This document shows, piece by piece, positions 1-20,134 of a stretch of 24,916 bases of DNA. The notes under the pieces were generated by a model. The model was not told where the DNA came from and did not search any database. It worked only from the letters and a program-made list of their open reading frames with translations. This DNA comes from Bacteroidota bacterium (GTDB lineage: Bacteria; Bacteroidota; Bacteroidia; Bacteroidales; JAHJDW01). The stretch's first letter is position 1; each line of letters starts with the position of its first letter. The position numbers and the translations under genes are program-made. The stretch spans positions 1 to 24,916 of the forward strand of contig JAHJDW010000132.1 of the NCBI GenBank assembly GCA_018812245.1. Reading direction: 5' to 3'.

Positions 1-229
1 TATTGAGGCATTAAATGAATTACATTATTACTATGGAAATATGCCAGAAGAACAATTGTCAGAGAATATAAGAAATGAACTGGACAAGATAATAGTTAAA
101 ACAAAAAACAGAATCGTTGCGACTGGCGCATTAAACCTGCAAGTAATAACAGGATTCATAAGTGAATTTGAAGCTTTATCTCGTATTGATGATTGGAAAG
201 AAAAATGCTATAATTATTATTGTCGTTAA
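1..229 (+). CDS. 3' end of a gene that starts upstream of the window; product unknown
   Basis: The frame of the 41-229 ORF stays open back to nt 2 with no stop (IEALNELHYYYGNMPEEQ...), so this is a C-terminal fragment. No recognisable motif. Confidence 0.3.
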   Translation, partial: IEALNELHYYYGNMPEEQLSENIRNELDKIIVKTKNRIVATGALNLQVITGFISEFEALSRIDDWKEKCYNYYCR

Positions 230-1554
230 TTACCCCTGTTAAACACAATGGCATCAATTTTCGACTCACTGGCATCAGCATGTATGCGAAACAAATCGGT
301 TAGTCTCTGGTAAGTTGCACTGCCAATTCCATATCTGGCTACATATTTATTGAGGCTGTCGGAATAGGCTTCCACACATTCATTCTTTAGGTCAACCAAG
401 ACCAATTTCCGTGATCTGCTACCCGGGTTTTTATCATATTCCTTCACTTTTTGCAGAAAATTAAAGAACAACTCTTGTCCAAGATGGCAAACATAGAGGG
501 AATCACTATCCGTCGTTTTTGGTGATAGAAACTGCTTCGTCCTCTTTTCGATGGTATCCAGTTGCTTTTTGCTTTCTAACATCATGGTACTGTTCAGCAT
601 CGGATGAGAAACTACATCAGTTGTTGGATTAACAAGCGACCTTCTTCCTGTAAAATGCACCGTTTTCACTTCCTCTATCCCAATTCCCTGATTCGGAGTT
701 GGGTTGTAATAGAAACGAAAAATGAAAAATAATAATATTGCAACAAATCCGGACATGAGGTAGCTCCACCGCCAACTTTTTTTTGAAAAAGCCTGACTAA
801 CAACCTCTGCTGATTGAAACCTGTCAACCGGGTCCTGAGCAGTACATTTTTCAACAAATTTCCGAAATCGAACCGGAACTTTTCGCAATTCTGAAATTTC
901 AGTTCTTCCAGTAAGTGCTTCGAGAATAATCAAACCCAGCGAATAAATATCACTCCTTGCATCGGCACGTTCAGGGTGACTGAATTGTTCCGGCGCTGCG
1001 TATCTTTTGGTGCCCGAAGAGATTGGCATGTATGAATCGGAACAGGCCAACCCGAAGTCAATGATTTTGACATTGTTCCCTTTATTGGTAATAATTATGT
1101 TCTCAGGTTTTAAGTCCAAATGAAATATTTGTTGGTTATGCAGGTAATTCAGTGCATCCGATAACTGCTGAACAATCCTCACTATGAGTTTGATATTCCT
1201 GATTCCATCCGGATTATTCCGAATAAGTTGACGTAATGTGTAACCATCAACAAATTCAGCGATAAGAAACAAACCCTCCTCGTCAACACCCCTGTTGAGA
1301 TATCTAACAATATTTGGGTGATCAAGATGAAATCCCAGATTGAATTCCTTCTCAAGAGCTGCAATGAAAAGCGGATTATCGCGATATTCAGGCGCAATTC
1401 GCTTCAACAACAACCACCTGTCATTAATCCGGATCTTAAACACCTCACTGGTTTCGCTCTGGAATGGCAGTCTTTCTACAACAGAAGAATTACTGGGATC
1501 AAGCACATTGACCTGATTATTTTCAAAGCCGGAATTTTCATCATAAACCGCCAT
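226..1554 (-). CDS. Membrane-anchored Hanks-type serine/threonine protein kinase (non-RD type)
   Basis: 442 aa. Catalytic loop HLDLKPENIII, DFG motif (IIDFGLA), activation-segment APE (RYAAPEQ), conserved K in VFKIRI/LLLKRI. One hydrophobic TM segment (LMSGFVAILLFFIFRFYY) follows the kinase domain. A C-terminal extracytoplasmic domain of ~170 aa of unknown fold comes after that. Confidence 0.8.
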   Translation of the reverse strand: MAVYDENSGFENNQVNVLDPSNSSVVERLPFQSETSEVFKIRINDRWLLLKRIAPEYRDNPLFIAALEKEFNLGFHLDHPNIVRYLNRGVDEEGLFLIAEFVDGYTLRQLIRNNPDGIRNIKLIVRIVQQLSDALNYLHNQQIFHLDLKPENIIITNKGNNVKIIDFGLACSDSYMPISSGTKRYAAPEQFSHPERADARSDIYSLGLIILEALTGRTEISELRKVPVRFRKFVEKCTAQDPVDRFQSAEVVSQAFSKKSWRWSYLMSGFVAILLFFIFRFYYNPTPNQGIGIEEVKTVHFTGRRSLVNPTTDVVSHPMLNSTMMLESKKQLDTIEKRTKQFLSPKTTDSDSLYVCHLGQELFFNFLQKVKEYDKNPGSRSRKLVLVDLKNECVEAYSDSLNKYVARYGIGSATYQRLTDLFRIHADASESKIDAIVFNRGN

Positions 1555-2108
1555 CAGCTTTCAATAATATTGATATTTGTAATGCCGCTGATTTTCCCTG
1601 CCTTAAATTGCCCAATATCTATTCCTCCTCGCTCAACTGAGCTGATTATCATCGGATATTGCTTTATAATATTCAGGATTTTCAATTTGTCGCCCTGAAT
1701 AAGTTTGCTGTTTTCGGAATCAACCACAATAAATTCATAATCGCCGCAATAGAGCATTTCAACGCGCCGATCAGGTTCGTATGTGAACTCTATTCTACAA
1801 TCTATTTTTAGTTTGTCAATGTTGATCTGCTCCAGATTGAGAAACTCTGAATTCTCGATCCGGGCAAATCGTTCAAGGTATTCATCCCAATTTTTACATC
1901 CAAGATACTGAGCAATAACATCGAGGGTAAATAATCGTGGTTCTTTGGTTCCTTTTACAAAGCCAAGTATTCTTTTCAGTGTTGAAGTACTTACCCGCTG
2001 TTTTGTTTCCATTGAAATATGACCTGCTAATGCCTCGCAGTCGGTTGGGTAACGTACTTCCTGCCCAAATTTCTTTTCGATTTCTTTACGAGTAATCTCT
2101 GATAGCAT
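1554..2108 (-). CDS. Hypothetical protein translationally coupled to the downstream kinase
   Basis: 184 aa. Its stop overlaps the kinase start by 1 nt (ATGA overlap at 1552-1556). N-terminal ~60 aa could form an HTH-like helix-turn-helix (ISMETKQRVSTSTLKRILG), which is an inference. No other recognisable motif. Confidence 0.55.
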   Translation of the reverse strand: MLSEITRKEIEKKFGQEVRYPTDCEALAGHISMETKQRVSTSTLKRILGFVKGTKEPRLFTLDVIAQYLGCKNWDEYLERFARIENSEFLNLEQINIDKLKIDCRIEFTYEPDRRVEMLYCGDYEFIVVDSENSKLIQGDKLKILNIIKQYPMIISSVERGGIDIGQFKAGKISGITNINIIES

Positions 2109-2126
2109 AGGTGCTTATTTTACACA

Positions 2127-2134
2127 CAAAGGTA
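2127..2134 (-). promoter_or_regulatory. Candidate Bacteroidota -7 promoter element (TAccTTTG) for the hypothetical-kinase operon
   Basis: Minus-strand reading gives TACCTTTG 18 nt upstream of the ATG at 2108. This matches the TAnnTTTG consensus. No clean -33 TTTG was seen. Confidence 0.3.
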
Positions 2135-2158
2135 AAAGAAATTCTAATGATTTTTGAA

Positions 2159-2191
2159 ATGAACAAAGTGAACCTAATGAACAAAATGAAC
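2159..2191 (-). promoter_or_regulatory. Four direct repeats of RTGAAC at exact 9-bp spacing (candidate regulator-binding array)
   Basis: Plus strand: ATGAAC(2159) GTGAAC(2168) ATGAAC(2177) ATGAAC(2186). They sit immediately upstream of the putative promoter of the 184-aa/kinase operon and just downstream of the XRE gene stop. Confidence 0.35.
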
Positions 2192-2198
2192 AGGCAGG

Positions 2199-2483
2199 TT
2201 AAAAAAAATTATTGGTTGTTTTGTTTATTGGTAATGAAAAATCGAACATGGTTGACAAGGGAATATCGAGGGCACGTGCAATGGCAAATACAGTGCTTAA
2301 TGTAGGATTAATCCGGGCAGTTTCAATCCGTGCAACCTGGCTGAGGGAAATTCCTGCTTCGAAAGCGAGCTGGGTTTGTGTAATACCAACGTCGTGCCTC
2401 AGCTTTTTTAATTGCTCAGCAAAGACCAGCAGGGCATCCTGGTCGAATATCAATTGTCGTTTGGGTTTGTTCTGTTGCTTCAC
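2199..2483 (-). CDS. XRE-family (Cro/CI-type) helix-turn-helix transcriptional regulator
   Basis: 94 aa. Classic HTH_3 signature LRHDVGITQTQLAFEAGISLSQVARIETARINPTLSTVFAIARALDI. Confidence 0.75.
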   Translation of the reverse strand: MKQQNKPKRQLIFDQDALLVFAEQLKKLRHDVGITQTQLAFEAGISLSQVARIETARINPTLSTVFAIARALDIPLSTMFDFSLPINKTTNNFF

Positions 2484-2515
2484 GGACGAAAATTACATGG
2501 ATTGAAAAAATTTGA

Positions 2516-2533
2516 TATAGCACTTGTGCTATA
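2516..2533. promoter_or_regulatory. Perfect 8-bp-arm palindrome TATAGCAC-TT-GTGCTATA (candidate operator for the XRE regulator)
   Basis: Seen directly in the divergent intergenic region between the XRE gene (2483) and the + strand gene at 2618. It lies just upstream of and adjacent to a TAtaTTTG -7-like element at 2540-2547. Confidence 0.4.
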
Positions 2534-2539
2534 ATTTTT

Positions 2540-2547
2540 TATATTTG
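2540..2547 (+). promoter_or_regulatory. Candidate -7 promoter element TATATTTG for the 2618 gene
   Basis: Matches the Bacteroidota TAnnTTTG consensus. Would put the TSS near 2554 and the conserved leader element inside the 5' UTR. Confidence 0.3.
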
Positions 2548-2568
2548 CAACGATTAGGATTTAAATAC

Positions 2569-2626
2569 GTGGAGTCCAGAACCCACGAGAAAAAACGGGG
2601 CTTAACCGAAAAGCCAGATGAGTAGG
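2569..2626 (+). repeat. Copy A of a conserved ~58-nt 5' leader element (GAGTCCAGA..AAAAAACGGGGC..AACCGAAAAGCCAGATGAGTAGG)
   Basis: About 80% identical, with one indel, to a second copy at ~2940-2996. This copy overlaps the annotated ATG at 2618. Confidence 0.5.
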
Positions 2627-2875
2627 GATTATTTCAATTGGAAAACTATGGCAATTATTGATTTGAGCAATTCAGAACCAAACAATCGAATTTCATTAAA
2701 CTGGAGAAGGCAAGAAACTCCTCCTTCCTGCTACCAGCTATTGATTGATGAGAATGGCAGGAAAGTAATTAGGTTTTTGTCATTTGCAACTAATGACTTT
2801 GAAATGGTAAATGGGCAGAAGCAAGACATGATTTTTAATATATCCGATCTCAAAAGCCTGCTGGATAGCCTATAA
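2618..2875 (+). CDS. Small hypothetical protein (85 aa)
   Basis: ORF divergent from the XRE regulator. No recognisable motif. The true start could be the internal Met at 2648, which would place the conserved leader fully upstream. Confidence 0.4.
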   Translation: MSRDYFNWKTMAIIDLSNSEPNNRISLNWRRQETPPSCYQLLIDENGRKVIRFLSFATNDFEMVNGQKQDMIFNISDLKSLLDSL

Positions 2876-2939
2876 TCAACTCAACGTTGCACGGGCAACA
2901 GTCACGATTTTACCGGCATGAAATAACTGAAGAATAAAA

Positions 2940-2996
2940 GTAGAGTCCAGATACTACAAAAAAAACGGGGCGGAATCGAAAAGCCAGAAGAGTAGG
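2940..2996 (+). repeat. Copy B of the conserved ~58-nt leader element, upstream of the 3012 gene
   Basis: GAGTCCAGATACTACAAAAAAAACGGGGCGGAATCGAAAAGCCAGAAGAGTAGG. Here the position matching the ATG of copy A reads AAG, and the element ends ~15 nt before the start codon. Coordinates may be off by 1. Confidence 0.5.
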
Positions 2997-3011
2997 AAAA
3001 AAAATGCTATT

Positions 3012-4901
3012 ATGAGAAAGTTTTTGCTTTTTGCTATGGGGCTCATCGCTTTTGAAATTGGAAATTCGCAAAGCCTAAAAACAATCACGGAGTATTGGAG
3101 CACCCTTAAACTTAAAGAGAAGTACACGGTAGTGACACAAGCACCTTACTACAAGCAAGGAAAATATGAGGCTTTTGATAGCGATGGGAATATTACTCAT
3201 TCACTTAACTACAACAAGGGGGTGCTTGATGGAGTTCAATATTTTTACCTTAACGATGAGGGTTCTCCTTCTTCTTACTCGTATTGTTCGCCAATTAGAA
3301 AACCAATGCACGTGTGGACATATAAAAATGGAGATAGGGTTGGAATACAGAAAGATTACACTTGCATGAACGGAAAATATTTTCTTTGGGTAGAAAAAAA
3401 CTGGGGAGAGAAAAACACTGCAACAAGGTATTTCTCGACTGGCAAGAAAATGTATGTAACCGAATGGATTGATAAAGCAGATAATGGAAGCGGTTCAGTA
3501 GAGTACTATTTTCCTAAAGGGAAATTGCGTGTGAAGTTCTCCTACAAATATGATGGCGAGACCTACAGCGGAAAATACTATGAATATTCTGAGCAAGGAG
3601 AGCTCATTATTGAAAGCAACTTTTCAGGCAAGAAGAATTGTTGGATAAATAACTTCACTGGTTATGACTTAGAGTACTTAACTGTTGGGACAAATAGAGA
3701 TGAGACAAAGTGGATTGGCGTCGATAATTGCAAAAGCTGTGAATCCTGTGAATATACGATCTTTGAGGACGGAATGAAGAATACAATGACTTACTCTTCT
3801 GGGGTTTTAATGTCATATCCAAATGGACAGAAAATGATAAGTGGAGATACGACATTTTTCGAAAATGGAAAGATAAAATCAATAGGCAAAACGCTATCTT
3901 TTTACGAGAATGGGAATAAAAAAGGGGATGGAGACACGACTTTCTACGAATCGGGTCAAGTTGAAACGATTGGGACAAAAATCAGCTATTACTTGAATGG
4001 TTCAAAAAGGCATCATAATGATACAACGTTCTACACAAATGGGAAAGTATCGACAATCGGAAAGGATATCAAGTTCTATGAGAATGGGAACCTGAAAACC
4101 GATGGCACCAACAAATTCTTCGAAAACGGGAAGCCCGAATACACTAAAGATGAATCCTATGAAAGAACATACAATGCGGATGGTCAATTAATTTCAGAAA
4201 CAAATCTGAGTACCGGTGAGTATTCCGTGAATTTCCCAAATGGAACAAGGAAAAAAATTGTAGTCTATAATAAAAAGGGCGAGATAAATGGATGGCTTCA
4301 GGAATTTGATGAAAATGGGAATTTTATTGAGTTCTCGTTTTATGTCGACGGTAAAAAACAAGATCTTACGATAAGTAATTTCTACGATGTCTTTAAGGAA
4401 GCCTTTGGGTCAATAAAAAAGAGTGAGTACATTTCTTATGGAAACAAACCATTAGAAACATACAAACCCCACAGCGAAACAAAACTCCTTTATTACAAAG
4501 GTGACATGTTGCTACAAAGCTACAAAGAGAAATATTCCACAGAAACATCAAAGCAAAAACGATTGCTATTATTAAAAGATGTCGTTTTCGCATGTAGTAA
4601 TTTGCTTGAGTTTGCAAAGAATTATACGGAATCAATGCAGCAGGAGTTGAAAAAAACGAAATCAATTGAGGATATTGAAGGATTTCTCAGTTACTACGAA
4701 AGTGTTTCAAACCAGATTGTTGAGGTAAACCAGAAGTATTCGTCTTTAATGACTGATAAGGCCAAAGCAGCCAAAATGAGTAAGGATGACTCCAAAAAAC
4801 TTGCGGGTGACATTAAACTGTATAATAAACTTTGCTCCAGCAAAAACAAATTGGATATGGGAATTGAACTCATCCAGCGAATTGAAAAACTATTAAATTG
4901 A
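3012..4901 (+). CDS. Secreted protein with MORN-variant / YwqK-like repeats and a helical C-terminal region
   Basis: 629 aa. N-terminal signal peptide MRKFLLFAMGLIAFEIGNSQS. Central repeated units FFENGKIKSIGK / FYENGNKKGDGDTTFYESGQVETIG / FYTNGKVSTIGKDIKFYENGNLKTDG, typical of the MORN-variant (YwqK-family) repeat. Lys/Glu-rich C-terminal third. Confidence 0.65.
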   Translation: MRKFLLFAMGLIAFEIGNSQSLKTITEYWSTLKLKEKYTVVTQAPYYKQGKYEAFDSDGNITHSLNYNKGVLDGVQYFYLNDEGSPSSYSYCSPIRKPMHVWTYKNGDRVGIQKDYTCMNGKYFLWVEKNWGEKNTATRYFSTGKKMYVTEWIDKADNGSGSVEYYFPKGKLRVKFSYKYDGETYSGKYYEYSEQGELIIESNFSGKKNCWINNFTGYDLEYLTVGTNRDETKWIGVDNCKSCESCEYTIFEDGMKNTMTYSSGVLMSYPNGQKMISGDTTFFENGKIKSIGKTLSFYENGNKKGDGDTTFYESGQVETIGTKISYYLNGSKRHHNDTTFYTNGKVSTIGKDIKFYENGNLKTDGTNKFFENGKPEYTKDESYERTYNADGQLISETNLSTGEYSVNFPNGTRKKIVVYNKKGEINGWLQEFDENGNFIEFSFYVDGKKQDLTISNFYDVFKEAFGSIKKSEYISYGNKPLETYKPHSETKLLYYKGDMLLQSYKEKYSTETSKQKRLLLLKDVVFACSNLLEFAKNYTESMQQELKKTKSIEDIEGFLSYYESVSNQIVEVNQKYSSLMTDKAKAAKMSKDDSKKLAGDIKLYNKLCSSKNKLDMGIELIQRIEKLLN

Positions 4902-4920
4902 AATCGAAATATTTTCAATT
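4896..4920 (+). terminator. Weak AT-rich hairpin (AATTGAAA-9nt-TTTCAATT) overlapping the stop codon, followed by a T-rich tract
   Basis: Perfect 8-bp inverted repeat seen directly. The stem is almost all A-T, so stability is low. Possible intrinsic terminator of the 3012-4901 gene. Confidence 0.2.
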
Positions 4921-5145
4921 TGAATCAAATTTGGTTGTATTTTTCAATGATGCCGAAAACGGGATTACCAGACGCGTCCATCCTATTCCGTCACACATTT
5001 CGCCTCCGCAATATTCCTGATTCGATACGGGTCACCGTATGCGACCGTGGAGGCTGTTTATTGATGAAAGTCAGCCACAGTTCACAATTCCGATTTGCAT
5101 TAATTTTCCATTGTGATTTTTGCTTGACATATTCTTTTCTTTTTC

Positions 5146-5153
5146 TACATTTG
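5146..5153 (+). promoter_or_regulatory. Candidate -7 promoter element TACATTTG for the SIR2-like cluster
   Basis: Matches TAnnTTTG. Lies 20 nt upstream of the ATG at 5174. A TTTG lies ~23 nt further upstream, slightly longer than the canonical spacing. Confidence 0.3.
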
Positions 5154-5173
5154 GACAAGCAAAAATTGACAAT

Positions 5174-6193
5174 ATGGAGATTTCCACAAAACCAGCGCCT
5201 CCCAAAATCACATATCTGCTTGGCGCGGGGGCAAGTGCGAACGCGCTGCCTATGGTTAAGGCATCTGGTTCCAACAAATCATTTCATGAATCACTCAGAA
5301 TGTTTGCGGCATCGCTTGAAAGCGAGCGCTCCACAGATGCCGACCTTTCTGAAATTCGGAACGAAATTGCAAAAGACGTCAGATGGCTTGCAGATGGGAC
5401 TGAAAAATTCAAGACTCCGGATACCTATGCCAAGTTTCTGTCATTGAAAGAAAAAAGCAATTTAGAGCGCCTCAAAGATGCACTATCATTCTTTTTTGTG
5501 TATGAGCAACTGGTAAACAAAAAGATAGATGATCGAGCTTTGGTGTTTTTGACGACAATTATGGAGTCAGCCGATTCAATTCCCGAAAACATTAAAATCC
5601 TGACGTGGAACTACGATTTCCAAATCCAACTGGCAGCTGAAGCATTTCGGAAGGAACAATTTAGCTTTAATCCATGTTCAAGCTCAATGGAGCACACAGA
5701 GCCGGTGATTGAATATCTGCCAAATCATGGGTTTCAGAATACTCAAACCGATAGAGTTTCCCTGGTTCATTTGAACGGAATAGCTGGTTTTTTTAATATG
5801 AGAAACCATGGCGTTAATAATAGCATATATAGCGTGTGTTATGAAAAGACCCATAATGAAGTACTAAAATTGGTCAACAGTTTTAATCATAGAGAACCAA
5901 ACCTACTTTCGTTTGCATGGGAGTCTGCTAATTCGGATACTGTCAAGATTGCAAAAGAAATTATTGAAGAAACCGAGATACTGGTAATTATTGGTTATTC
6001 ATTTCCGTTCTTCAACCGGGCCATAGACAAGCAAATATTTGAAACGCTCATGGCAAGTGGCAAGTTGAGGAAGATCTATTATCAAGACCCAAATAGAAAT
6101 GGGGAGTTTTTAATAAACCGATTTAATCTGGCTGGTGTTGACATAAAACACGAAAATGATACGGTCAACTATTACATTCCAATGGAACTCTGA
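5174..6193 (+). CDS. SIR2_2-family (sirtuin-like, NADase-fold) protein
   Basis: The ORF track starts at TTG 5120. The ATG at 5174 (MEISTK...) downstream of the -7 motif is the likelier start. Motifs in SIR2_2 order: ITYLLGAGASANALP (GAGxS...P nucleotide loop), ILTWNYDFQIQ (TTNYD-type catalytic N/D), SLVHLNGIAG (HLHG-type His), ILVIIGYSFPFFNRAID (GYS motif). About 340 aa, no other fused domain. Confidence 0.65.
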   Translation: MEISTKPAPPKITYLLGAGASANALPMVKASGSNKSFHESLRMFAASLESERSTDADLSEIRNEIAKDVRWLADGTEKFKTPDTYAKFLSLKEKSNLERLKDALSFFFVYEQLVNKKIDDRALVFLTTIMESADSIPENIKILTWNYDFQIQLAAEAFRKEQFSFNPCSSSMEHTEPVIEYLPNHGFQNTQTDRVSLVHLNGIAGFFNMRNHGVNNSIYSVCYEKTHNEVLKLVNSFNHREPNLLSFAWESANSDTVKIAKEIIEETEILVIIGYSFPFFNRAIDKQIFETLMASGKLRKIYYQDPNRNGEFLINRFNLAGVDIKHENDTVNYYIPMEL

Positions 6194-6214
6194 ATCACAA
6201 GCAACCATTATACT

Positions 6215-6457
6215 ATGATAACAAAGACAACGTCAATACCCCCGCATCCAGATTTCGTCGTGATATTCTCGTGTGATGTTTGTGGACAACGGTTGAATAT
6301 GGAACGAATCCCAACAGCGAATGCAGGCGCTGCATTCTCAAGCACTGTTGTCGAATGCCCCAACTGCAAAAAAGAGCAGCGGGTATATGCAGATATTGAC
6401 GGAAATGAACTGGTGATTGACTTCTCGGATATGGAAGAACTTGTCTTGGTGGTTTAA
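6215..6457 (+). CDS. Small zinc-ribbon protein (80 aa)
   Basis: Two Cys pairs, CDVC (res 21-24) and CPNC (res 48-51), typical of a Zn-ribbon. Starts 21 nt after the SIR2-like gene. Confidence 0.5.
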   Translation: MITKTTSIPPHPDFVVIFSCDVCGQRLNMERIPTANAGAAFSSTVVECPNCKKEQRVYADIDGNELVIDFSDMEELVLVV

Positions 6458-6510
6458 TCGTGGATTATGAATGAGTCGCGAATATTCACTCATAGGTATC
6501 ATAATAGATA

Positions 6511-7284
6511 ATGAAGGAATTACTAAAAAAATGTGATAGAATATACAGGGAATTGCCGTGTTGTCACAGCGATGGTCGTACCTGTAACTGCTATTCTTGT
6601 CTCTGCAATGAATACTTCAATACTGCTGACACCTATGAATGCAAAAAAAAGCTATCCTTTTATGTCTTAAAGTATGCTCCATCATTCTCCACCGAACTTT
6701 ACCATTACTTGGTCAAATCGAAGATTCTTGATAGATTCAATAACGAGGAGCTAAATATTCTGTCCATTGGATGTGGTTGTTGTCATGATTTGTACTGTAT
6801 TGCCTTCTATATCAAACAGAGGAATCTCAATATTAATCTCTCATACACAGGCATTGATAAAAGCACTCAATGGGAACAGTTATATTCCCAAGATGCTGTC
6901 TATTTGCAACAAGATGTAGTAAAAGAATGCGATCTGAAAGGATTTGATATTATCTTTATTAACAAAGTTTTCTCAACTTTATATGAAAACAAACATGACA
7001 AACCATTTCTAGACAAGCTCACTGAGGCAATCGACAGGGATATGATATTCGATGCCTACCTTGTTTTCGTTGATGTAAACAGTAAATTCAAAGGGCGTGA
7101 TAAATTCAATGGAGCTGTAGCTAAAAAATTTAATCAGGAAACCAAATACTATTTTGATGGGTATAGTGGCGGAACAGGGAGCAATTGGATTCATCTTGGT
7201 CAAAAGAATGTTCCAAAGGGTGAGTATTTTAGGAGCCTATCGGTCAAACCAATAATGGAGACAAAAAAAAACAGTTATTTTTGA
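6511..7284 (+). CDS. Class I SAM-dependent methyltransferase with a Cys-rich N-terminal extension
   Basis: 257 aa. Motif I-like LSIGCGCCHD, post-I acidic residue (YTGIDKS), motif II-like GFDIIFINKVFS. N-terminal 45 aa carry 8 Cys plus a His (CCHSDGRTCNCYSCLC...EC), suggesting a metal-binding module. Confidence 0.55.
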   Translation: MKELLKKCDRIYRELPCCHSDGRTCNCYSCLCNEYFNTADTYECKKKLSFYVLKYAPSFSTELYHYLVKSKILDRFNNEELNILSIGCGCCHDLYCIAFYIKQRNLNINLSYTGIDKSTQWEQLYSQDAVYLQQDVVKECDLKGFDIIFINKVFSTLYENKHDKPFLDKLTEAIDRDMIFDAYLVFVDVNSKFKGRDKFNGAVAKKFNQETKYYFDGYSGGTGSNWIHLGQKNVPKGEYFRSLSVKPIMETKKNSYF

Positions 7285-7300
7285 ATACAGGAAATAAGTT

Positions 7301-8233
7301 ATGATTATTAGCGCGAGCAGAAGGACGGATATTCCGGCATTTTTCAGCGATTGGTTTTACAACAACCTTGGTCGGGGGTATTTCTTGGTGAGGAATCCCA
7401 TGAATATTCACCAAATCAGTCAAATAAACATTTCGCCAAGTACGGTTGACTGTTTTGTTTTCTGGACAAAAAACCCCGAACCATTTCTCCGAAGGATTAA
7501 AGAACTAAACGGCTACAAGTACTATTTTCAATATACGGTTACCGGGTATGGAAGGTCACTTGAACCGAACGTTCCATCAATGGAAAGCACAATTCAGACA
7601 TTCATTTCATTGTCAAAATCAATTGGCCCGAAACGCGTAATCTGGAGATACGACCCAATATTGCTTTCAAATAAATTTGACATGGAATTTCATGTGTCGA
7701 ATTTTACGAATATTGCGGGTAAACTATCTGGTCATACAAAAAGGTGTGTAATCAGCTTCGTTGACTTCTACAAAAAGACAATCCGAAACCTTTCAGGGAT
7801 AGATTATGATGATATATCCCAATATCAGATTGACGCTCTTGTAAAAAACCTTAGCGAAATAGCCCGCAGTCATAACATTGAATTAGTAACCTGCGCGGAG
7901 GATATTGACCTGCGCCGCTATAATGTGAATCAAGGAAAGTGCATTGACGAAAAACTAATAGAAGAGTTTACAGGATTTTCATTGAAGATAAAAAAAGACG
8001 CCAATCAGCGCCAGGAATGCGGTTGTGCGGCGAGCATAGATATTGGCGCGTACAATACCTGCCCCCATAGTTGTTTATATTGTTATGCCAATTTTGATTT
8101 GCGACAGGTTCGCGAGAACTACGAGCAGCATGACGAACACTCAGGACTCCTTTTCGGAAGCGTTGGGTCGAAGGATACAATTCGTCAAAGGAAAATGCTT
8201 AGTTGTAAAAACATTCAACAAAAACTCCTATAG
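7301..8233 (+). CDS. DUF1848-like protein with a C-terminal cysteine cluster (putative Fe-S/metal-binding)
   Basis: 310 aa. The N-terminus MIISASRRTDIPAFF matches my recollection of the DUF1848 (PF08902) signature. C-terminal cluster ECGCAASIDIGAYNTCPHSCLYCYAN. Starts 16 nt after the methyltransferase stop. Confidence 0.55.
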   Translation: MIISASRRTDIPAFFSDWFYNNLGRGYFLVRNPMNIHQISQINISPSTVDCFVFWTKNPEPFLRRIKELNGYKYYFQYTVTGYGRSLEPNVPSMESTIQTFISLSKSIGPKRVIWRYDPILLSNKFDMEFHVSNFTNIAGKLSGHTKRCVISFVDFYKKTIRNLSGIDYDDISQYQIDALVKNLSEIARSHNIELVTCAEDIDLRRYNVNQGKCIDEKLIEEFTGFSLKIKKDANQRQECGCAASIDIGAYNTCPHSCLYCYANFDLRQVRENYEQHDEHSGLLFGSVGSKDTIRQRKMLSCKNIQQKLL

Positions 8234-8321
8234 GCTCAGCAACTAATGTCCTGTATGCTTTGGACCCGATATCCAGAATTTCCAGTTATTGTTTTTTGTA
8301 ATTCAACTATTGAAATATCCC

Positions 8322-8510
8322 CTATGGGCGAAGTTGGTCTATCCCGTCAACCATTTGCTCCATTAATGTTTTCTGCTCCTCCAGCAATGAGATAACCATG
8401 TCCAATTTTCTTGAAATATCGTCCGTATCACTAGTCGAACTAGAAGTATTGGATTCAATACTAACCAATCTTCTTTCAATTTTTTCTAACCATTCAATTT
8501 CTGTTGCCAT
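8322..8510 (-). CDS. Small acidic hypothetical protein (62 aa)
   Basis: Only ORF between the DUF1848 gene and the tRNA. Coiled-coil-like, Ser/Asp/Glu-rich. Could be spurious. Confidence 0.25.
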   Translation of the reverse strand: MATEIEWLEKIERRLVSIESNTSSSTSDTDDISRKLDMVISLLEEQKTLMEQMVDGIDQLRP

Positions 8511-8730
8511 GCTAGTATAGTATAAATTGGGAGAATAACGTCATGAATTTTGACCAAAAATTCTTCCTATGAAATAATACTGCAAAGATAATTCAAAATT
8601 CAAGTGATTATGAATGATTGATGCAAATATTAACGAGATATTGATTCGCTGAATATTGAATTATTTGGTAAGGTTTTCATCATTGTATCATTTTCAGATT
8701 CAAAAAGTACACCTACTCCATACACCTTAT

Positions 8731-8764
8731 AAACAAAAAGGGTCACACGAATTTGTGTAACCCT
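8731..8764 (-). terminator. Intrinsic terminator downstream of tRNA-Pro
   Basis: Minus-strand reading AGGGTTACAC-AAATTC-GTGTGACCCT followed by TTTTTGTTTAT. The stem is 9 of 10 bp. It lies immediately 3' of the tRNA. Confidence 0.5.
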
Positions 8765-8778
8765 TTGATTTTCAACCG

Positions 8779-8852
8779 TCGGGGTGAGAAGACTCGAACT
8801 TCCGGCCCCTTGCACCCCATGCAAGTACGCTAGCCAACTGCGCCACACCCCG
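8779..8852 (-). tRNA. tRNA-Pro (anticodon GGG)
   Basis: Reverse complement CGGGGTGTGGCGCAGTTGGCTAGCGTACTTGCATGGGGTGCAAGGGGCCGGAAGTTCGAGTCTTCTCACCCCGA. Has a 7-bp acceptor stem (CGGGGTG/CACCCCG), D-arm GCGCAGTTGGCTAGCGT, anticodon stem CTTGC/GCAAG with loop ATGGGGT (U33, G37), and T-arm GGAAGTTCGAGTCTTCT. Closely resembles E. coli tRNA-Pro. No 3' CCA is encoded. Ends are +/-2 nt. Confidence 0.85.
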
Positions 8853-9317
8853 AACTTTCAACAGTACGCTATCAGCCTTACGGCAGACACGCCCCGAATT
8901 CCTTTATACAGGGCTGCGAAATTAATACTTATTTCAATGGCGGCAAACAATTTTGCTAAATATTTTGGAAGTCAGTTGGTCTCATTCATGGCTGCGCATA
9001 AAACAAAATGAACACCTGATCAATCTGTCAACTGAGGGCGGACTCGATTGGTGGCAACTTCAATTATTAATTACGGTATGATAAATACGTCACCACTAAT
9101 TAACTTATCCATTAAATATGTTGCCTCATCAACTATGTTTCCCATTGAATCCCACTCCTTCCATGATAAATACCCATTAGTCAATGTTTTCAGGTGGTGC
9201 GCAAAAGTCGTTCAACGAATTTGTATAAATTGCAATAGTCAATTTTGTTTATAATCTGAAAAATTGTCGGGTTTTTAGCGCCAGGAGGAACTACTAACAT
9301 CAACAGTTTCCCTAAAC

Positions 9318-10853
9318 CTACAATGGAATATTACCATGTTTTTTTGGTGGGTTTGATTTTCGTTTGTTCCGGCACATTTCCAAAGCCTGTATTAACTTAG
9401 GGCGGGTTTCTTTCGGGTAAATTATCTCATCGATGTAGCCAAGTTCAGCAGCTTTATACGGATTTGCAAAAGTATTTCTGTAATTATCAACGGCTGTATT
9501 GCGTTCTTCATCGGAGATTGTGCTTTTGAAAAGAATATTTACAGCTCCGGCGGCACCCATCACTGCAATTTCAGCCGAAGGATATGCGAAATTAACATCA
9601 GCTCCAATATGTTTGCTCGACATCACATCATACGCTCCGCCATACGCTTTACGGGTGATGACAGTAATTTTCGGAACGGTTGCCTCGCAGAACGCATACA
9701 ATAGTTTTGCGCCGTGTTTGATAATGCCTCCGAATTCCTGTTCTGTCCCGGGTAAAAATCCAGGTACATCAACAAAAGTAATGATAGGAATATTGAAGCA
9801 ATCACAGAAGCGTACAAACCGGGCTGCCTTAAGAGATGAATTAATATCAAGGACACCGGCAAGCACTTCAGGCTGATTTGCAACAATCCCCACAGGAAAT
9901 CCATTCAACCGCGTAAAGCCAATCAGGATATTCTGAGCATAATAGGGCATCACTTCAAAGAAGTTGTTATTATCACCCACACTCGTGATAATGTCTTTCA
10001 TGTTGTACGGCTTGTTCGGGTCATCGGGAACAACGGTCTGCAATTTTTCATCAAGCCTGTATATATCGTCCATACATTTTTTGTATGGCGGTTCATCCAT
10101 GTTGTTTAGCGGGAGGTAACTGATCAGCTCGCGCAACATCATCATACATTGTTCATCGTTATCAGCAACAAAGTGGGCTACTCCGCTTTTGGAATTGTGC
10201 GTCATTGCGCCCCCAAGTTCTTCTTTTGTCACCTCTTCGTGGGTAACTGCTTTAATAACATCAGGACCAGTGACAAACATATTGCTGGTATTCTTAACCA
10301 TCAGAATGAAATCTGTAATTGCAGGTGAATAAACGGCTCCACCGGCACATGCACCCAGAATAGCGGATATTTGAGGTATTACACCTGATGCAATTGTATT
10401 CAGGTAAAAAATTTCAGCATAACCTGCAAGGCTTTCGATGCCTTCCTGTATTCTCGCGCCTCCTGAATCGTTTAACCCTATTACCGGGGCTCCCATTCTC
10501 ATTGCGGTTTGCATCAGTTTTACAACTTTGTCGGCATTGGCCCGGCTCATAGTGCCTCCAAATACTGTAAAATCATTTGCGAAAACAAACATTAACCGCC
10601 CATCAATTTTCCCATATCCGGTAATCATCCCATCACCTGGAATTTTATTTTTCTCCATTCCGAAATCACTGCAACGATGGGTAACAAATTTGTCTGTTTC
10701 AACAAACGATCCGGGGTCAAGCAGATCATTGATCCTTTCTCTGGCGGTTTTTTTTCCTGCCTTATGATGTTTTTCAATCCGCTCAATTCCGCCGCCCAAT
10801 TCTGACTCTTTTTTCCGGTTTTCGAAAAGTCTGTATTTTTCTTCCAAGCTCAT
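9318..10853 (-). CDS. Biotin-dependent acyl-CoA carboxylase, carboxyltransferase subunit (propionyl-CoA carboxylase beta / methylmalonyl-CoA decarboxylase alpha family)
   Basis: 511 aa. Conserved carboxyltransferase N and C domains, e.g. [72 protein letters not shown]. Confidence 0.9.
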
Positions 10854-10893
10854 AATGTTATTGGTTTTAGTCGTGGTTGTGCAGAATCAAATT

Positions 10894-11406
10894 TTACTCA
10901 ACAATAATCAGGGGTTGGTTTGCAGTAACAGTGTCTCCTTCCTTAACTTTGATTTCTTTAATTATTCTGTCTTTTTTCACTTTATACTCGCTTTGCATTT
11001 TCATTGCTTCAACAATAATTACAGTCTGACCTTCTACTACAGAATCTCCGGCATTTACCAGAATTTTGACTACTTTTCCGGGCATAGGTGTGGAGATTAC
11101 GACTCCTGATTCATTGTCGTGTCCTTTTGGCCTGTTAAGCAAATACTTTGCTTCAGCATCAATAATGTCAACTTCGTACGTATGCTGATATGTTTGTACT
11201 TCGTATTTTTTTTTGTTTTCGCCACGGAAAATCTCAACGTTATATGATTTGCTTCCTATCACAATTGAATAAACGCCTTCTGAAACCCTGACAATATCCG
11301 TTTCATAAGTGGTATCATCAACTTGAAATGTTATCAGGTTTTCATCCCTTGTCAGCATATCAACCTGGCAAGTATGATTATTGTCAATATTTAATTCTAA
11401 TTTCAT
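10894..11406 (-). CDS. Biotin carboxyl carrier protein (biotinyl domain)
   Basis: 170 aa. C-terminal biotinyl-lysine motif VIIVEAMKMQSEY in a lipoyl/biotinyl hybrid-barrel context. Lies between the carboxyltransferase and biotin carboxylase genes. Confidence 0.85.
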   Translation of the reverse strand: MKLELNIDNNHTCQVDMLTRDENLITFQVDDTTYETDIVRVSEGVYSIVIGSKSYNVEIFRGENKKKYEVQTYQHTYEVDIIDAEAKYLLNRPKGHDNESGVVISTPMPGKVVKILVNAGDSVVEGQTVIIVEAMKMQSEYKVKKDRIIKEIKVKEGDTVTANQPLIIVE

Positions 11407-11429
11407 AGATCACTGTTTTGAAATATTAT

Positions 11430-12938
11430 TTACAATCGCATCATGCCTGCTTTTCTGCCGTGAGATTTCCATTCACTAATTGCCGGATTTTTTTCTTCAG
11501 AGTTGTTGCTTTTTTCATGCTGCGACAAGTAATCATAATAAGCAACCATGGCAGCAATATCTCTCTGGAAACTGTTTTCTGTCTTTGACTCAAAAAGGAA
11601 TGCCTTGTTGTTTTCAATAAAATGTGTACTGTATTTTCCGGATACAAAATCAGTTGCTTCCATGATTCTTTGAAGGAATTTTATGGAAGTTTTTATGCCG
11701 GTGATCTTGTATTCATATAAAGCTCTTTTCATTCTTTTAATGGCTTCATCGCGGGTTTTTCCCCAAACAATCAGTTTTGCAATCAAAGGATCATAATAGA
11801 TCGGTATTTCAAAACCTTCAAATACATATCCGTCAATCCTAATCCCAAAACCATGAGGTTCGCGCACGTACTTAATAATTCCGGGGCATGGCATAAAGTT
11901 ATTGTCAGTATCTTCAGCATAAATCCGGCATTGAATAGAGTGCCCGTCCTGGAATAAATCTTCCTGAACAAATGCTAATGGAAGGCCGTTTGCAATATTA
12001 ATCTGTTCTCTTACAAGATCAACACCGACGACTCTTTCAGTAACAGTGTGTTCGACCTGAAGTCGTGTATTCATTTCAAGGAAATAGAAATTCAGATCGT
12101 CGTCAACGATAAATTCAACAGTGCCTGCTCCGTGGTAGTTCACCGCTTTTGCCGCAGCAACTGCTGTTTCCCCCATTTTTTTTCTGACTTCGGGTGTTAG
12201 AATACACGAAGGCGTTTCCTCTATTACTTTCTGGTGGCGTCTCTGAACTGAGCATTCACGCTCGAAAAGATGAACCGTATTGCCGTGTTTGTCGGCAAGT
12301 ATTTGAAACTCGATATGGTGAGGCGATGCAATATATTTTTCGATATACACTGCATCGTTGCCGAATGCAGCTTTGGCTTCTGACTGCGCAGCGCGTACTG
12401 AAGGAATCACATCCTTCATGTTTTTCACAAGGCGCATTCCTTTACCTCCACCGCCGGCTGAAGCCTTTATCATTACCGGAACACCGATTTCTTTAACTAT
12501 TTCAAGCGCTTTGTTTTCATCGGTAATGCATTCAGTTGTTCCAGGTACAACAGGAACCCCCGCTTTTATCATGGTTTGACGTGCGGTAATCTTATCGCCC
12601 ATGGTAGAAATTGCATAAGGGTCAGGTCCAATAAAAATTATCCCTTCTTTTTGGCAGCGCTCCGAAAATGCAGCATTTTCGGACAAGAAACCGTATCCCG
12701 GATGTATCGCATCTGCTCCTGTTTTTTTTGCAGCTTCAATGATTTTATCAATTACAAGGTAGCTTTCAGAAGACGGTGAGGGACCGATACAGCAAACTTC
12801 TTCTGCATACCGAACATGCATCGACGGTCTGTCAACTTCTGAAAAAACTGCAACAACCGGAATACCTATTTCACGGCATGTACGCATGATTCTGACGGCT
12901 ATTTCTCCGCGATTTGCAATAAGAATTTTCTTGATCAT
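11430..12938 (-). CDS. accC: Biotin carboxylase subunit (ATP-grasp) of an acetyl/propionyl-CoA carboxylase
   Basis: 502 aa. N-terminus MIKKILIANRGEIAVRIMRTCREIGI, ATP-grasp motifs (MIKASAGGGGKGMR, EMNTRLQVEHTVTE), C-terminal biotin carboxylase domain. Confidence 0.9.
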   Translation of the reverse strand: MIKKILIANRGEIAVRIMRTCREIGIPVVAVFSEVDRPSMHVRYAEEVCCIGPSPSSESYLVIDKIIEAAKKTGADAIHPGYGFLSENAAFSERCQKEGIIFIGPDPYAISTMGDKITARQTMIKAGVPVVPGTTECITDENKALEIVKEIGVPVMIKASAGGGGKGMRLVKNMKDVIPSVRAAQSEAKAAFGNDAVYIEKYIASPHHIEFQILADKHGNTVHLFERECSVQRRHQKVIEETPSCILTPEVRKKMGETAVAAAKAVNYHGAGTVEFIVDDDLNFYFLEMNTRLQVEHTVTERVVGVDLVREQINIANGLPLAFVQEDLFQDGHSIQCRIYAEDTDNNFMPCPGIIKYVREPHGFGIRIDGYVFEGFEIPIYYDPLIAKLIVWGKTRDEAIKRMKRALYEYKITGIKTSIKFLQRIMEATDFVSGKYSTHFIENNKAFLFESKTENSFQRDIAAMVAYYDYLSQHEKSNNSEEKNPAISEWKSHGRKAGMMRL

Positions 12939-17624: not shown

Positions 17625-20015
17625 ATGAAACGATTATGGAAAATATGGGTTTCTGACAAAGGGCTGATGTTGACGGCCGCCTGTCTGTTAATACTATTTG
17701 TCATGGTCTGTCCGTCGAAAAATCAACTCTTTTCAGATCCCTGCTCTACCGTTTTGTTAGACAGGGACGGAGAACTGATGGGAGCCAGTATCGCCGACGA
17801 CGGACAGTGGCGCTTTCCCCAAAGCCGTATTGTTCCTTATAAATTCATGATTGCAATCACCCAATTCGAGGACCAAAACTTTTTTCTGCATAGCGGCGTC
17901 GATTACGTTTCTGTAGTCCGTGCTGCATATCAGAATATTGCATCTATGAGCATCGTTAGCGGTGGTAGCACAATTACGATGCAGGTGGTTCGCATTGCCC
18001 GGAAAAATCAGCCCAGAAACTTTTTTCAGAAATTTATCGAAATTATCTGGTCATTTCGACTCGAACTGACTGCAAATAAACTTGAAATTCTTTCGCTTTA
18101 CGCTTCTAATGCGCCGTTTGGGGGTAACGTTGTAGGACTTGATGCTGCAGCATGGCGGTATTACGGTCGTTCGCCCGACAAGCTAAGCTGGGGCGAAGCA
18201 GCTACCCTTGCTGTGCTTCCCAATAGTCCGTCGCTCGTGCATCCGGGAAAAAACGACAAAAAACTGCTTGAGAAAAGAAATCGCTTGCTGGACAAACTTT
18301 TCAGGAAGGGTTTTATTGATGAATCAACCTGTGAGCTTGCCAAGCAGGAGCCGCTTCCGGGAGCACCGAAACCGCTGCCACGTCTGGCTCCTCATTTACT
18401 TGATCGTCTGTATGCCGACGGACACAGGGGCGAGATAGTTACAAGTTCGGTCGATAAACATATTCAGGAAAGACTCAACGAGTTGGCTGCATATCATCAT
18501 GGGAGACTTAAGGCAAACGATATTAGCAATCTGGCTGCATTGATTCTGGATACGGAGACTGGCGAAGCGCTCGGTTATGTAGGCAATATTCCTGATTTTG
18601 AAGATGATGTGCATGGCTGTCAGGTTGATATTATTACCGCTTCCCGATCAACTGGCAGCATACTCAAACCATTTCTTTATGCTGCTTTGCTGCAGGATGG
18701 AAAAATTCTGCCTACTACGCTGATTCCTGATATCCCATCGCAGATATACGGATTTAAACCCGAGAATTACAACAAAACGTATGATGGCGCAGTTCCTGCA
18801 AAAAGAGCATTGGCGCGTTCGCTGAATATTCCAGCGGTGTTTATGCTGCGCATGTATGGCGCCGATAAATTCCATTTCCTGCTTCGCAAACTTGGAATGT
18901 CAACCATTGTGTATCCTGCCAGTCATTACGGGCTTGCCATGATAATAGGTGGTGCCGAAGGAACACTTTGGGATATGACTGGAATTTTCGCCAGTATGGC
19001 ACGCACGCTGAAGCATTACCCTGAGTACAACGGAATGTACGACAGGTCAGACTTCCACTCACCGACATACATAGTTACATCCGGGAAAAGAAAGCCCGAA
19101 CTTACTGCTACTCCGTCGATATTCAGTGCAGCCGCTATTTGGACCACGTTCAATGCAATGATAGAGGTTTCGCGCCCTGATGAGGAAAGGAACTGGAAGT
19201 ATTTTAGTTCATCATCGCCTGTAGCCTGGAAAACAGGTACGAGTTTCGGAAACCGCGATGGATGGGCGATTGGATGTACTCCGCAATATACTGTCGGAGT
19301 TTGGGTTGGAAATGCCGATGGGGAGGGGCGACCATTTCTCACGGGAATAAGCGCTGCTGCTCCACTATTATTCGATATTTTCTCTGTGGTTAAGCCAAGG
19401 GGCTGGTTCTCAATTCCTTATGATGAAATGGAACGAATCCCGATTTGTCGGTATAGCGGATATAAGAATGGTCCCAATTGTGAGTCTATTGATACAATTT
19501 GGGCATTATCCCAATGTGCGAATTCCGGATTGTGTCCATATCACCAGATTGTTCATCTTGATAGTACTGAAAAATATCGTGTCAACAGTGAATGCGAACT
19601 GGTCGCAAACATGAAACACAAGCCTTGGTTTGTGCTACCTCCTGTAATGGAGTATTATTTTCGCTCAAAAAATTCATTTTACAAAATGCTTCCGCCCTTG
19701 CGTGAGGATTGCAGCCGGGGAGGGGGCGACATGTCGTCGCTGGAGATAATATACCCAAAGCCTGGTGCAAAAATTTATGTCCCCGTTGAACTTGACGGAA
19801 CGCCTGGACAGAGTATTTTCAAAGCTGCTCACAGGGCACCGGAGAAAGAAATATTCTGGCATCTCGACGATGAATTTGTGACCGTCACTACCTCACTTCA
19901 TTCTATCTCCATCAGACCGCCCCCCGGCAAACACCGCCTGACCCTTGTTGATGAGGATGGAGAAACCATTTACGTTGATTTTGAGGTGCTTGAAAAGGGG
20001 AAAAAGCAAAACTGA
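17625..20015 (+). CDS. pbpC: Penicillin-binding protein 1C (bifunctional glycosyltransferase/transpeptidase)
   Basis: GT51 motifs EDQNFFLHSGVDYVSVVRA and RIARKN, transpeptidase SxxK (STGSILKPFLY) and KTG (WKTGTSFGNRDGW), C-terminal PbpC-type domain. The track's ORF starts at ATG 17589. The Met at 17625 (MKRLWKIW..., membrane anchor) follows a TACATTTG -7 motif at 17608-17615 and is preferred. The start could also be the Met at 17667. Confidence 0.85.
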   Translation: MKRLWKIWVSDKGLMLTAACLLILFVMVCPSKNQLFSDPCSTVLLDRDGELMGASIADDGQWRFPQSRIVPYKFMIAITQFEDQNFFLHSGVDYVSVVRAAYQNIASMSIVSGGSTITMQVVRIARKNQPRNFFQKFIEIIWSFRLELTANKLEILSLYASNAPFGGNVVGLDAAAWRYYGRSPDKLSWGEAATLAVLPNSPSLVHPGKNDKKLLEKRNRLLDKLFRKGFIDESTCELAKQEPLPGAPKPLPRLAPHLLDRLYADGHRGEIVTSSVDKHIQERLNELAAYHHGRLKANDISNLAALILDTETGEALGYVGNIPDFEDDVHGCQVDIITASRSTGSILKPFLYAALLQDGKILPTTLIPDIPSQIYGFKPENYNKTYDGAVPAKRALARSLNIPAVFMLRMYGADKFHFLLRKLGMSTIVYPASHYGLAMIIGGAEGTLWDMTGIFASMARTLKHYPEYNGMYDRSDFHSPTYIVTSGKRKPELTATPSIFSAAAIWTTFNAMIEVSRPDEERNWKYFSSSSPVAWKTGTSFGNRDGWAIGCTPQYTVGVWVGNADGEGRPFLTGISAAAPLLFDIFSVVKPRGWFSIPYDEMERIPICRYSGYKNGPNCESIDTIWALSQCANSGLCPYHQIVHLDSTEKYRVNSECELVANMKHKPWFVLPPVMEYYFRSKNSFYKMLPPLREDCSRGGGDMSSLEIIYPKPGAKIYVPVELDGTPGQSIFKAAHRAPEKEIFWHLDDEFVTVTTSLHSISIRPPPGKHRLTLVDEDGETIYVDFEVLEKGKKQN

Positions 20016-20134
20016 AACTTCAATTATTACCGGTAATTGTTGATTTTACGAACTATATTACGTATATTTACATGGACAAAAATCGAAACATAATCGTGTA
20101 CAATAAGTATAAAGGGGGAACAATACCTTCATCT

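Follow-up and report, generated by a model that had tools for sequence, protein, structure and literature searches.

A tRNA-Pro(GGG) gene at the edge of a proposed mosaic accessory region in a Bacteroidota contig

The window analyzed in this work is an entire contig of 24,916 bp, and the single tRNA gene that ARAGORN detected along its whole length is a tRNA-Pro(GGG) located on the minus strand at positions 8778-8852. The DNA on one side of this gene (positions 1-8777, hereafter the left block) carries genes encoding a Ser/Thr kinase, an XRE HTH protein, a SIR2-fold protein, a methyltransferase-like protein and a DUF1848 protein, and on the other side lies an acyl-CoA carboxylase operon. The features are arranged as follows.

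226-2483, minus strand: three-gene operon (Pfam, PADLOC and translations; NCBI MBU0487814.1)
226-1554, minus strand: Ser/Thr kinase (Pfam, PADLOC)
1554-2108, minus strand: unknown 184-aa protein (translation)
2199-2483, minus strand: XRE HTH protein (Pfam, PADLOC)
2564-2633 and 2935-3002, plus strand: two DUF805 RNA motifs (Rfam RF03081, 72.4 and 79.9 bits; gathering score 51.1)
3012-4901, plus strand: 629-aa MORN-repeat protein (Pfam MORN_2; translation)
5174-6193, plus strand: SIR2-fold protein of 339 aa, KKD31_07685 (family alignment, AlphaFold2, Foldseek, PADLOC)
6215-6457, plus strand: 80-aa zinc-ribbon-like protein (weak Pfam and NCBIfam matches only)
6511-7284, plus strand: Cys-rich methyltransferase-like protein (weak methyltransferase matches in Pfam; PADLOC C3a159, 9.8e-11)
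7301-8233, plus strand: DUF1848 protein, MBU0487822.1, converging on the tRNA (Pfam PF08902, E 7e-109; PADLOC RTasDUF1848, 4.8e-51)
8234-8730, no strand: AT-rich spacer from the DUF1848 gene to the terminator (GC profile, ORF scan)
8731-8766, minus strand: intrinsic terminator of the tRNA with a 12-bp stem, a 6-nt loop and a U-run (terminator scan, fold)
8778-8852, minus strand: tRNA-Pro, anticodon GGG (ARAGORN; Rfam RF00005, 55.7 bits)
8853-9317, no strand: spacer upstream of the tRNA, 38% GC (presumed to hold its promoter)
9318-12938, minus strand: acyl-CoA carboxylase operon encoding biotin carboxylase, BCCP and carboxyltransferase (Pfam; tblastn synteny)

Beyond the carboxylase operon the contig continues with SIMPL, HSDR_N_2, Reg_prop, Band_7 and PBP1C-like genes, and then with an ORF of more than 1600 aa that leaves the contig. 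Position 1 falls inside the left block, where the edge of the contig cuts an ORF and leaves a 75-aa C-terminal fragment that gave no Pfam match. The proteins of the contig are registered at NCBI as MBU0487814-824, with locus tags of the KKD31_ series.

The Rfam tRNA model covers positions 8779-8852 of the tRNA gene, whose terminal sequence is ...CACCCCGA with CCA not being encoded. Fourteen bases 3' of the gene and on the same strand, the terminator scan found a hairpin with a 12-pair stem (8766-8737) and a 6-nt loop followed by UUUUUGUUU, and the T-run of this U-rich tail reaches position 8731. The fold has a minimum free energy of -19 kcal/mol (z = -3.2), and equal folding was obtained with only 1 of 200 shuffled sequences. 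The tRNA-Pro(GGG) gene and its own hairpin terminator are thus real, and ARAGORN, Rfam, the terminator scan and the shuffled folds agreed with the original prediction, made from the letters alone, in the coordinates, strand, anticodon and terminator of the gene. The same prediction had placed the 3' end of the tRNA toward the region containing the SIR2, XRE and kinase genes and had described a switch to acyl-CoA carboxylase genes on the right; the strand and the gene calls confirmed that the 3' end points to the left block, and Pfam matches confirmed the carboxyltransferase-BCCP-biotin carboxylase operon. The promoter of the tRNA is presumably located within the 8853-9317 spacer, from which a functional tRNA-Pro(GGG) would be transcribed leftward and stopped by its own hairpin. 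Because this hairpin is nearly symmetric, it may also stop the transcript of the converging DUF1848 gene on the plus strand.

The 545-bp DNA between the DUF1848 gene and the tRNA is AT-rich (about 33% GC over 8234-8777), and within the spacer a single ORF deserves mention, on the minus strand at 8322-8510; it encodes a coiled-coil-like product of 62 aa with a weak, sub-threshold DUF4083 match. The accession MBU0487823, which falls unassigned between those of the DUF1848 protein and the carboxyltransferase, may correspond to this ORF.

At the far end of the left block, within the three-gene operon, the kinase start overlaps with the stop codon of the 184-aa gene. The kinase contains a hydrophobic segment that, judging from the translated sequence, probably spans the membrane, and its C-terminal domain has no family match. 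Next to this operon, the two DUF805 RNA motifs, both full-length, flank a small ORF (2618-2875); the first extends into the beginning of this ORF and the second stops 10 nt ahead of the MORN-repeat gene. Tandem DUF805 RNA motifs, a candidate cis-regulator, are unusual ahead of a gene that encodes a MORN protein instead of a DUF805 protein. We take this RNA motif to be typical of Bacteroidota, in which case at least part of the left block would be of Bacteroidota origin. The N terminus of the MORN-repeat protein resembles, by eye, a signal peptide, and the protein is therefore probably secreted.

Defense islands typically carry SIR2-fold and kinase genes, and both are present in the window. In contrast with such islands, however, the PADLOC models revealed no complete described defense system in the window but only matches to single domains, i.e. 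the kinase (PD-T4-6 and MAD6, in both cases through the generic kinase domain only), the HTH protein, SIR2 (E 0.0035), the C3a159 methyltransferase and RTasDUF1848.

The protein encoded at 5174-6193 gave no Pfam SIR2 match, and the PADLOC SIR2 match is weak. Because sequence profiles alone were insufficient, the assignment was made from alignment motifs, a structural model and structure matches. The motifs GAGAS and GYSFP are invariant in an alignment of 35 family members, and the AlphaFold2 model (pLDDT 90.3) found its best PDB matches by Foldseek in CobB, FAM118B, PfSir2A, DSR2 and ThsA, with probabilities of 0.99-1.00 and TM values of 0.27-0.58. The predicted fold, together with the GAGxS NAD-binding motif, assigns the protein to the SIR2 superfamily, and the defense-type SIR2 proteins DSR2, ThsA and FAM118B are among those best matches. 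The protein belongs to a SIR2-like family of about 2,200 members, mostly from Bacteroidota, for which there is no Pfam model, and relatives with 28-34% identity are encoded in 9 IMG/VR contigs. We also considered whether the left genes form a single conserved SIR2 cluster, and this proposal was rejected because the one homologue context examined, that of the closest SIR2-like homologue located on a long contig (L175), contains none of the other left genes. This absence argues for a left block that is a mosaic.

The only unit of the left block that recurs elsewhere is the pair formed by the methyltransferase-like and DUF1848 genes (6511-8233 in the window), which was found again at 3702-5497 of the metagenome contig L170 and at 870-2560 of locus L189. 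The L170 pair, with 26-31% and 60% identity to the window proteins, lies among HTH_17, DUF3871, AAA_24 and RadC genes, surroundings that look like a mobile-element context, and L189 is a phage-labeled scaffold (MT836297.1). In a DNA search of positions 778-8777 against phage and plasmid records, the single match was a 65%-identical DUF1848 stretch in this same scaffold, and relatives of the DUF1848 protein are present in 6 plasmid and 8 phage records. A scan of viral contigs with overly strict DUF1848 peptide patterns gave no match. A published survey has associated UG25 methylase-reverse transcriptase fusions with a DUF1848 protein (PMC9226505). The window resembles the UG25 systems in that its DUF1848 gene adjoins a methyltransferase-like gene, but differs from them in having no reverse transcriptase.

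The DNA to the right of the tRNA had also been judged GC-richer, and this is so for the right side as a whole (42.8%, versus 38.0% in the left block) but not for the part that adjoins the tRNA. The carboxylase operon has 40.4% GC and GC3 values of 0.40/0.32/0.36, which are not above the 0.36-0.44 of the left genes; the GC content rises only at about 13.5-14 kb, with no step at the tRNA, and GC3 does not differ between the left (0.406) and right (0.420) genes (Mann-Whitney p = 0.24). The compositional junction at the tRNA is nevertheless real, but it resides in codon usage. The pooled left and right genes are separated by an RSCU distance of 0.219, a value reached by 0.1-0.3% of the gene-label permutations (0.143 +/- 0.019), and the contrast survives the removal of the largest genes or of the carboxylase operon. 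The best contiguous breakpoint lies between the DUF1848 and carboxyltransferase genes, i.e. at the tRNA (0.2185), and a break after the methyltransferase-like gene is nearly equal (0.2171). In a leave-one-out analysis, each of the 9 left genes and each of the 10 right genes was nearer to the pool of its own side.

The 3-gene carboxylase operon is the sole syntenic block that tblastn recovered in relatives. Relatives with a carboxyltransferase 74-88% identical to that of the window have no tRNA beside the operon and different neighbors on both sides, as is the case of the six loci L164-L169 (85-88%), which lack a tRNA after the operon. Likewise, the genome and metagenome contigs among the matches listed, whose carboxyltransferases are at most 79% identical, have no tRNA nearby and keep only the three-gene operon. 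Because synteny is lost on both sides, these relatives are unfit as an empty-site reference. Closer carboxyltransferases exist: the 90% cluster contains 11 other proteins, those directly compared being 88% and 93% identical, and the 93% relative (MBI4947457.1) is encoded on a 59.8-kb contig; a further member, MEI8203670.1, is encoded on a contig of 11.9 kb. In a database of 5.8 billion proteins, the best non-self homologues of the DUF1848 and SIR2-like proteins are 63% and 51% identical, respectively, and no closer orthologue of either was found there. The absence of close DUF1848 and SIR2-like orthologues where carboxyltransferase relatives of 88-93% identity are present suggests that those relatives probably lack both genes. 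These protein-database matches, drawn from incomplete assemblies, support a variable presence of the left genes among relatives.

Three further contigs belong to the same strain, two of them (L001 and L002) being 99.95% identical to the window and the third (L174, 1.8 kb) 100% identical. L001 and L002 end within the carboxyltransferase gene (window positions 10040 and 9894), some 1.1 kb beyond the tRNA on its right side, and L174 ends in the left block. The differing break positions of the two independent assemblies L001 and L002 are probably due to low-coverage fragmentation rather than to a structural variant.

Taken together, the most probable reading, to which we give about an even chance, is that of an accessory mosaic adjoining a tRNA, for which site-specific integration cannot be demonstrated. 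The codon-usage break, the absence of close orthologues, the phage, plasmid and mobile-element relatives, the lack of a shared cassette in L175 and the missing integrase, integrase remnant and repeat all argue for this reading, and the DUF805 RNA motifs, by suggesting that some of the block is native Bacteroidota DNA, count against it. The left 8.7 kb were most likely acquired horizontally, and probably piecemeal, in a variable region beside the tRNA. The tRNA would then happen to mark the edge of an 8.7-kb accessory mosaic, variably present among relatives and composed of several modules, namely the operon of the XRE, unknown and Ser/Thr kinase genes, the MORN gene after its DUF805 RNA motifs, the SIR2-fold gene, the zinc-ribbon gene, and the methyltransferase-like and DUF1848 pair.

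An accessory block that starts at the 3' end of a tRNA is, on the other hand, the classic signature of site-specific integration, and classical cases are the P4-like islands and, among integrative mobilizable elements, NBU1 of Bacteroides, which is inserted in tRNA-Leu. The window shares with them a tRNA 3' end that borders accessory cargo with a codon usage unlike that of the adjoining chromosome, but the integrase and the flanking direct repeat that define those islands were not found in the window. According to a second reading, the left block would be a true genomic island inserted by a tyrosine recombinase into the 3' end of tRNA-Pro(GGG), its integrase and attR lying off the contig or having decayed. 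The contig does end inside the block, and contig breaks are frequent at mobile DNA.

Viral contigs indicate that this type of tRNA is used as a target elsewhere. When IMG/VR was scanned with the 3' end of the window tRNA, four loci (L163, L176, L178 and L179) were found in which a tRNA-Pro(CGG), sharing with the window tRNA a 3' end of 19 nt (29 nt in L163), is followed, at a distance of 80-140 bp, by related tyrosine integrases and, in L163, by phage structural-type genes after the integrase. In these Bacteroidota-type prophages, as in the window, the foreign DNA begins just past the 3' end of the tRNA, but they combine a CGG anticodon with an integrase and phage genes, whereas the window combines a GGG anticodon with neither.

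Closer to the window tRNA is a 49-nt tRNA 3' fragment, with no intact tRNA, in locus L177 (IMGVR_UViG_3300027985_001029). This fragment (893-941, minus strand) is identical at 48 of its 49 positions to window positions 8778-8826 and covers the 3' part of a GGG tRNA, starting at the anticodon stem, and a divergent tyrosine integrase with Arm-DNA-bind_5, SAM_5 and catalytic domains is encoded on the plus strand at 1027-2253, after an estimated gap of 37 bp. The fragment is an att site derived from the tRNA-Pro(GGG) type, and its presence beside an integrase marks tRNA-Pro(GGG) as an integration target. After integration, the L177 layout would put the integrase at the tRNA-distal end, an arrangement that would fit the island reading. 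In contrast with the window, the integrase of L177 lies beside the fragment, and no L177 gene resembles a window gene; more generally, the window proteins gave no match in any of the compared viral loci (L163 and L176-L179), which counts against such an island.

The 20-nt anticodon arm of tRNA-Pro(GGG) occurs in 85 viral-contig stretches, 80 of which were analyzed; for each site we recorded the nearest ORF encoding 180 aa or more, up to a distance of 800 bp. Of the 48 such ORFs located 3' of a site (59 sites had enough sequence in this direction), 25 encode Phage_integrase proteins, compared with 2 of 18 located 5' of a site. Since tRNA-Pro(GGG) is a popular target in viral contigs, the prior expectation of the original prediction was reasonable, and these integrases also favor an island. 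Nevertheless, the usual place of the integrase is directly downstream of the tRNA, as seen in those 25 cases (against 2 located 5') and likewise in each of the four tRNA-Pro(CGG) prophages, and in the window this place is taken by the terminator, the 545-bp spacer and the converging DUF1848 gene. Two of the stretches (L222, 13962-13981, and L237, 361-380) come from the same 44-kb viral contig, IMGVR_UViG_3300023082_000016, which therefore carries two tRNA-Pro(GGG) anticodon arms on the same strand; neither is within an intact tRNA, and the two may represent either attL/attR repeats or a terminal repeat.

Within the window itself, the Pfam, NCBIfam and PADLOC scans found no recombinase family among the left ORFs, and a tblastn search with the integrase of a tRNA-Pro prophage revealed no integrase remnant, giving only hits with E > 4. 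Even when up to 3 mismatches were allowed, no second copy of the 19-nt tRNA 3' end was found in the window, and blastn-short of the whole tRNA against the window yielded nothing above chance 10-mers. These results are in agreement with the original prediction, which had reported neither an integrase nor a repeat of the tRNA 3' end. Its main proposal, that the tRNA is an island integration boundary, held in part: the left block is accessory-like, an RSCU break is located at the tRNA, and the tRNA type serves as an att site elsewhere; but the left 8.7 kb contain no integrase, remnant or repeat, the layout with an integrase next to the tRNA is missing, there is no GC3 step, and the unrelated modules that make up the mosaic block include no mobility genes. 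An intact or active tRNA-integrating element is therefore not what the contig shows, and the tRNA as an att boundary is plausible, although undemonstrated. Because the classic block-at-tRNA signature is combined with a tRNA that is an att site elsewhere, a decayed or partly captured island is a live alternative, and we regard a true tRNA-integrated island as possible, if somewhat doubtful.

A third reading is that of an ordinary, lineage-specific chromosome, in which the left genes would be vertically inherited and poorly conserved, the tRNA would be a mere neighbor, and the codon contrast would stem from expression or gene age. Differences in codon usage can indeed arise from expression level instead of origin, and the equal GC3 on both sides is in agreement with this reading, as are the presumably Bacteroidota-typical DUF805 RNA motifs, the probably secreted MORN protein, the mostly Bacteroidota homologues of the SIR2-like protein, and the fact that the right side is also non-syntenic in relatives past the 3-gene operon. 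Moreover, BCCP is only 62-64% identical in relatives whose carboxyltransferase is 85% identical, so that the comparable 63% of the DUF1848 protein is not aberrant by itself. However, the codon-usage partition sorts all 19 genes to their own side and peaks at the tRNA, no DUF1848 or SIR2-like orthologue exceeds the above identities despite the existence of a relative with a 93%-identical carboxyltransferase, and homologues occur in phage, plasmid and mobile-element contexts, all of which make a purely vertical origin of the left genes unlikely.

There is a small chance that the tRNA-proximal arm of an L177-type island with a distal integrase makes up the left block, carrying as cargo an undescribed defense module of SIR2-fold, zinc-ribbon, methyltransferase-like and DUF1848 proteins that would be a reverse transcriptase-free relative of the UG25 methyltransferase-reverse transcriptase/DUF1848 systems.

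Under the mosaic reading, as under the island reading, an accessory block at the edge of a tRNA is ordinary and belongs to a well-known kind. A tRNA-Pro-integrated island, if true, would add one more case of a familiar architecture, in this instance in an uncultured, groundwater-type Bacteroidota MAG, and would flag the SIR2-fold protein and the methyltransferase-like and DUF1848 pair as mobile cargo and anti-phage candidates. For annotation, the left 8.7 kb are best handled as accessory DNA, and an integration boundary should not be entered as an established feature.

At the opposite end of the contig, the large ORF (approximately 20003-24916, plus strand) is located downstream of the PBP1C-like gene and is open at the contig end. 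We had expected an alpha-2-macroglobulin partner of PBP1C at this position, and this candidate was dropped because the Pfam matches of the ORF are to PD40 and TPR only.
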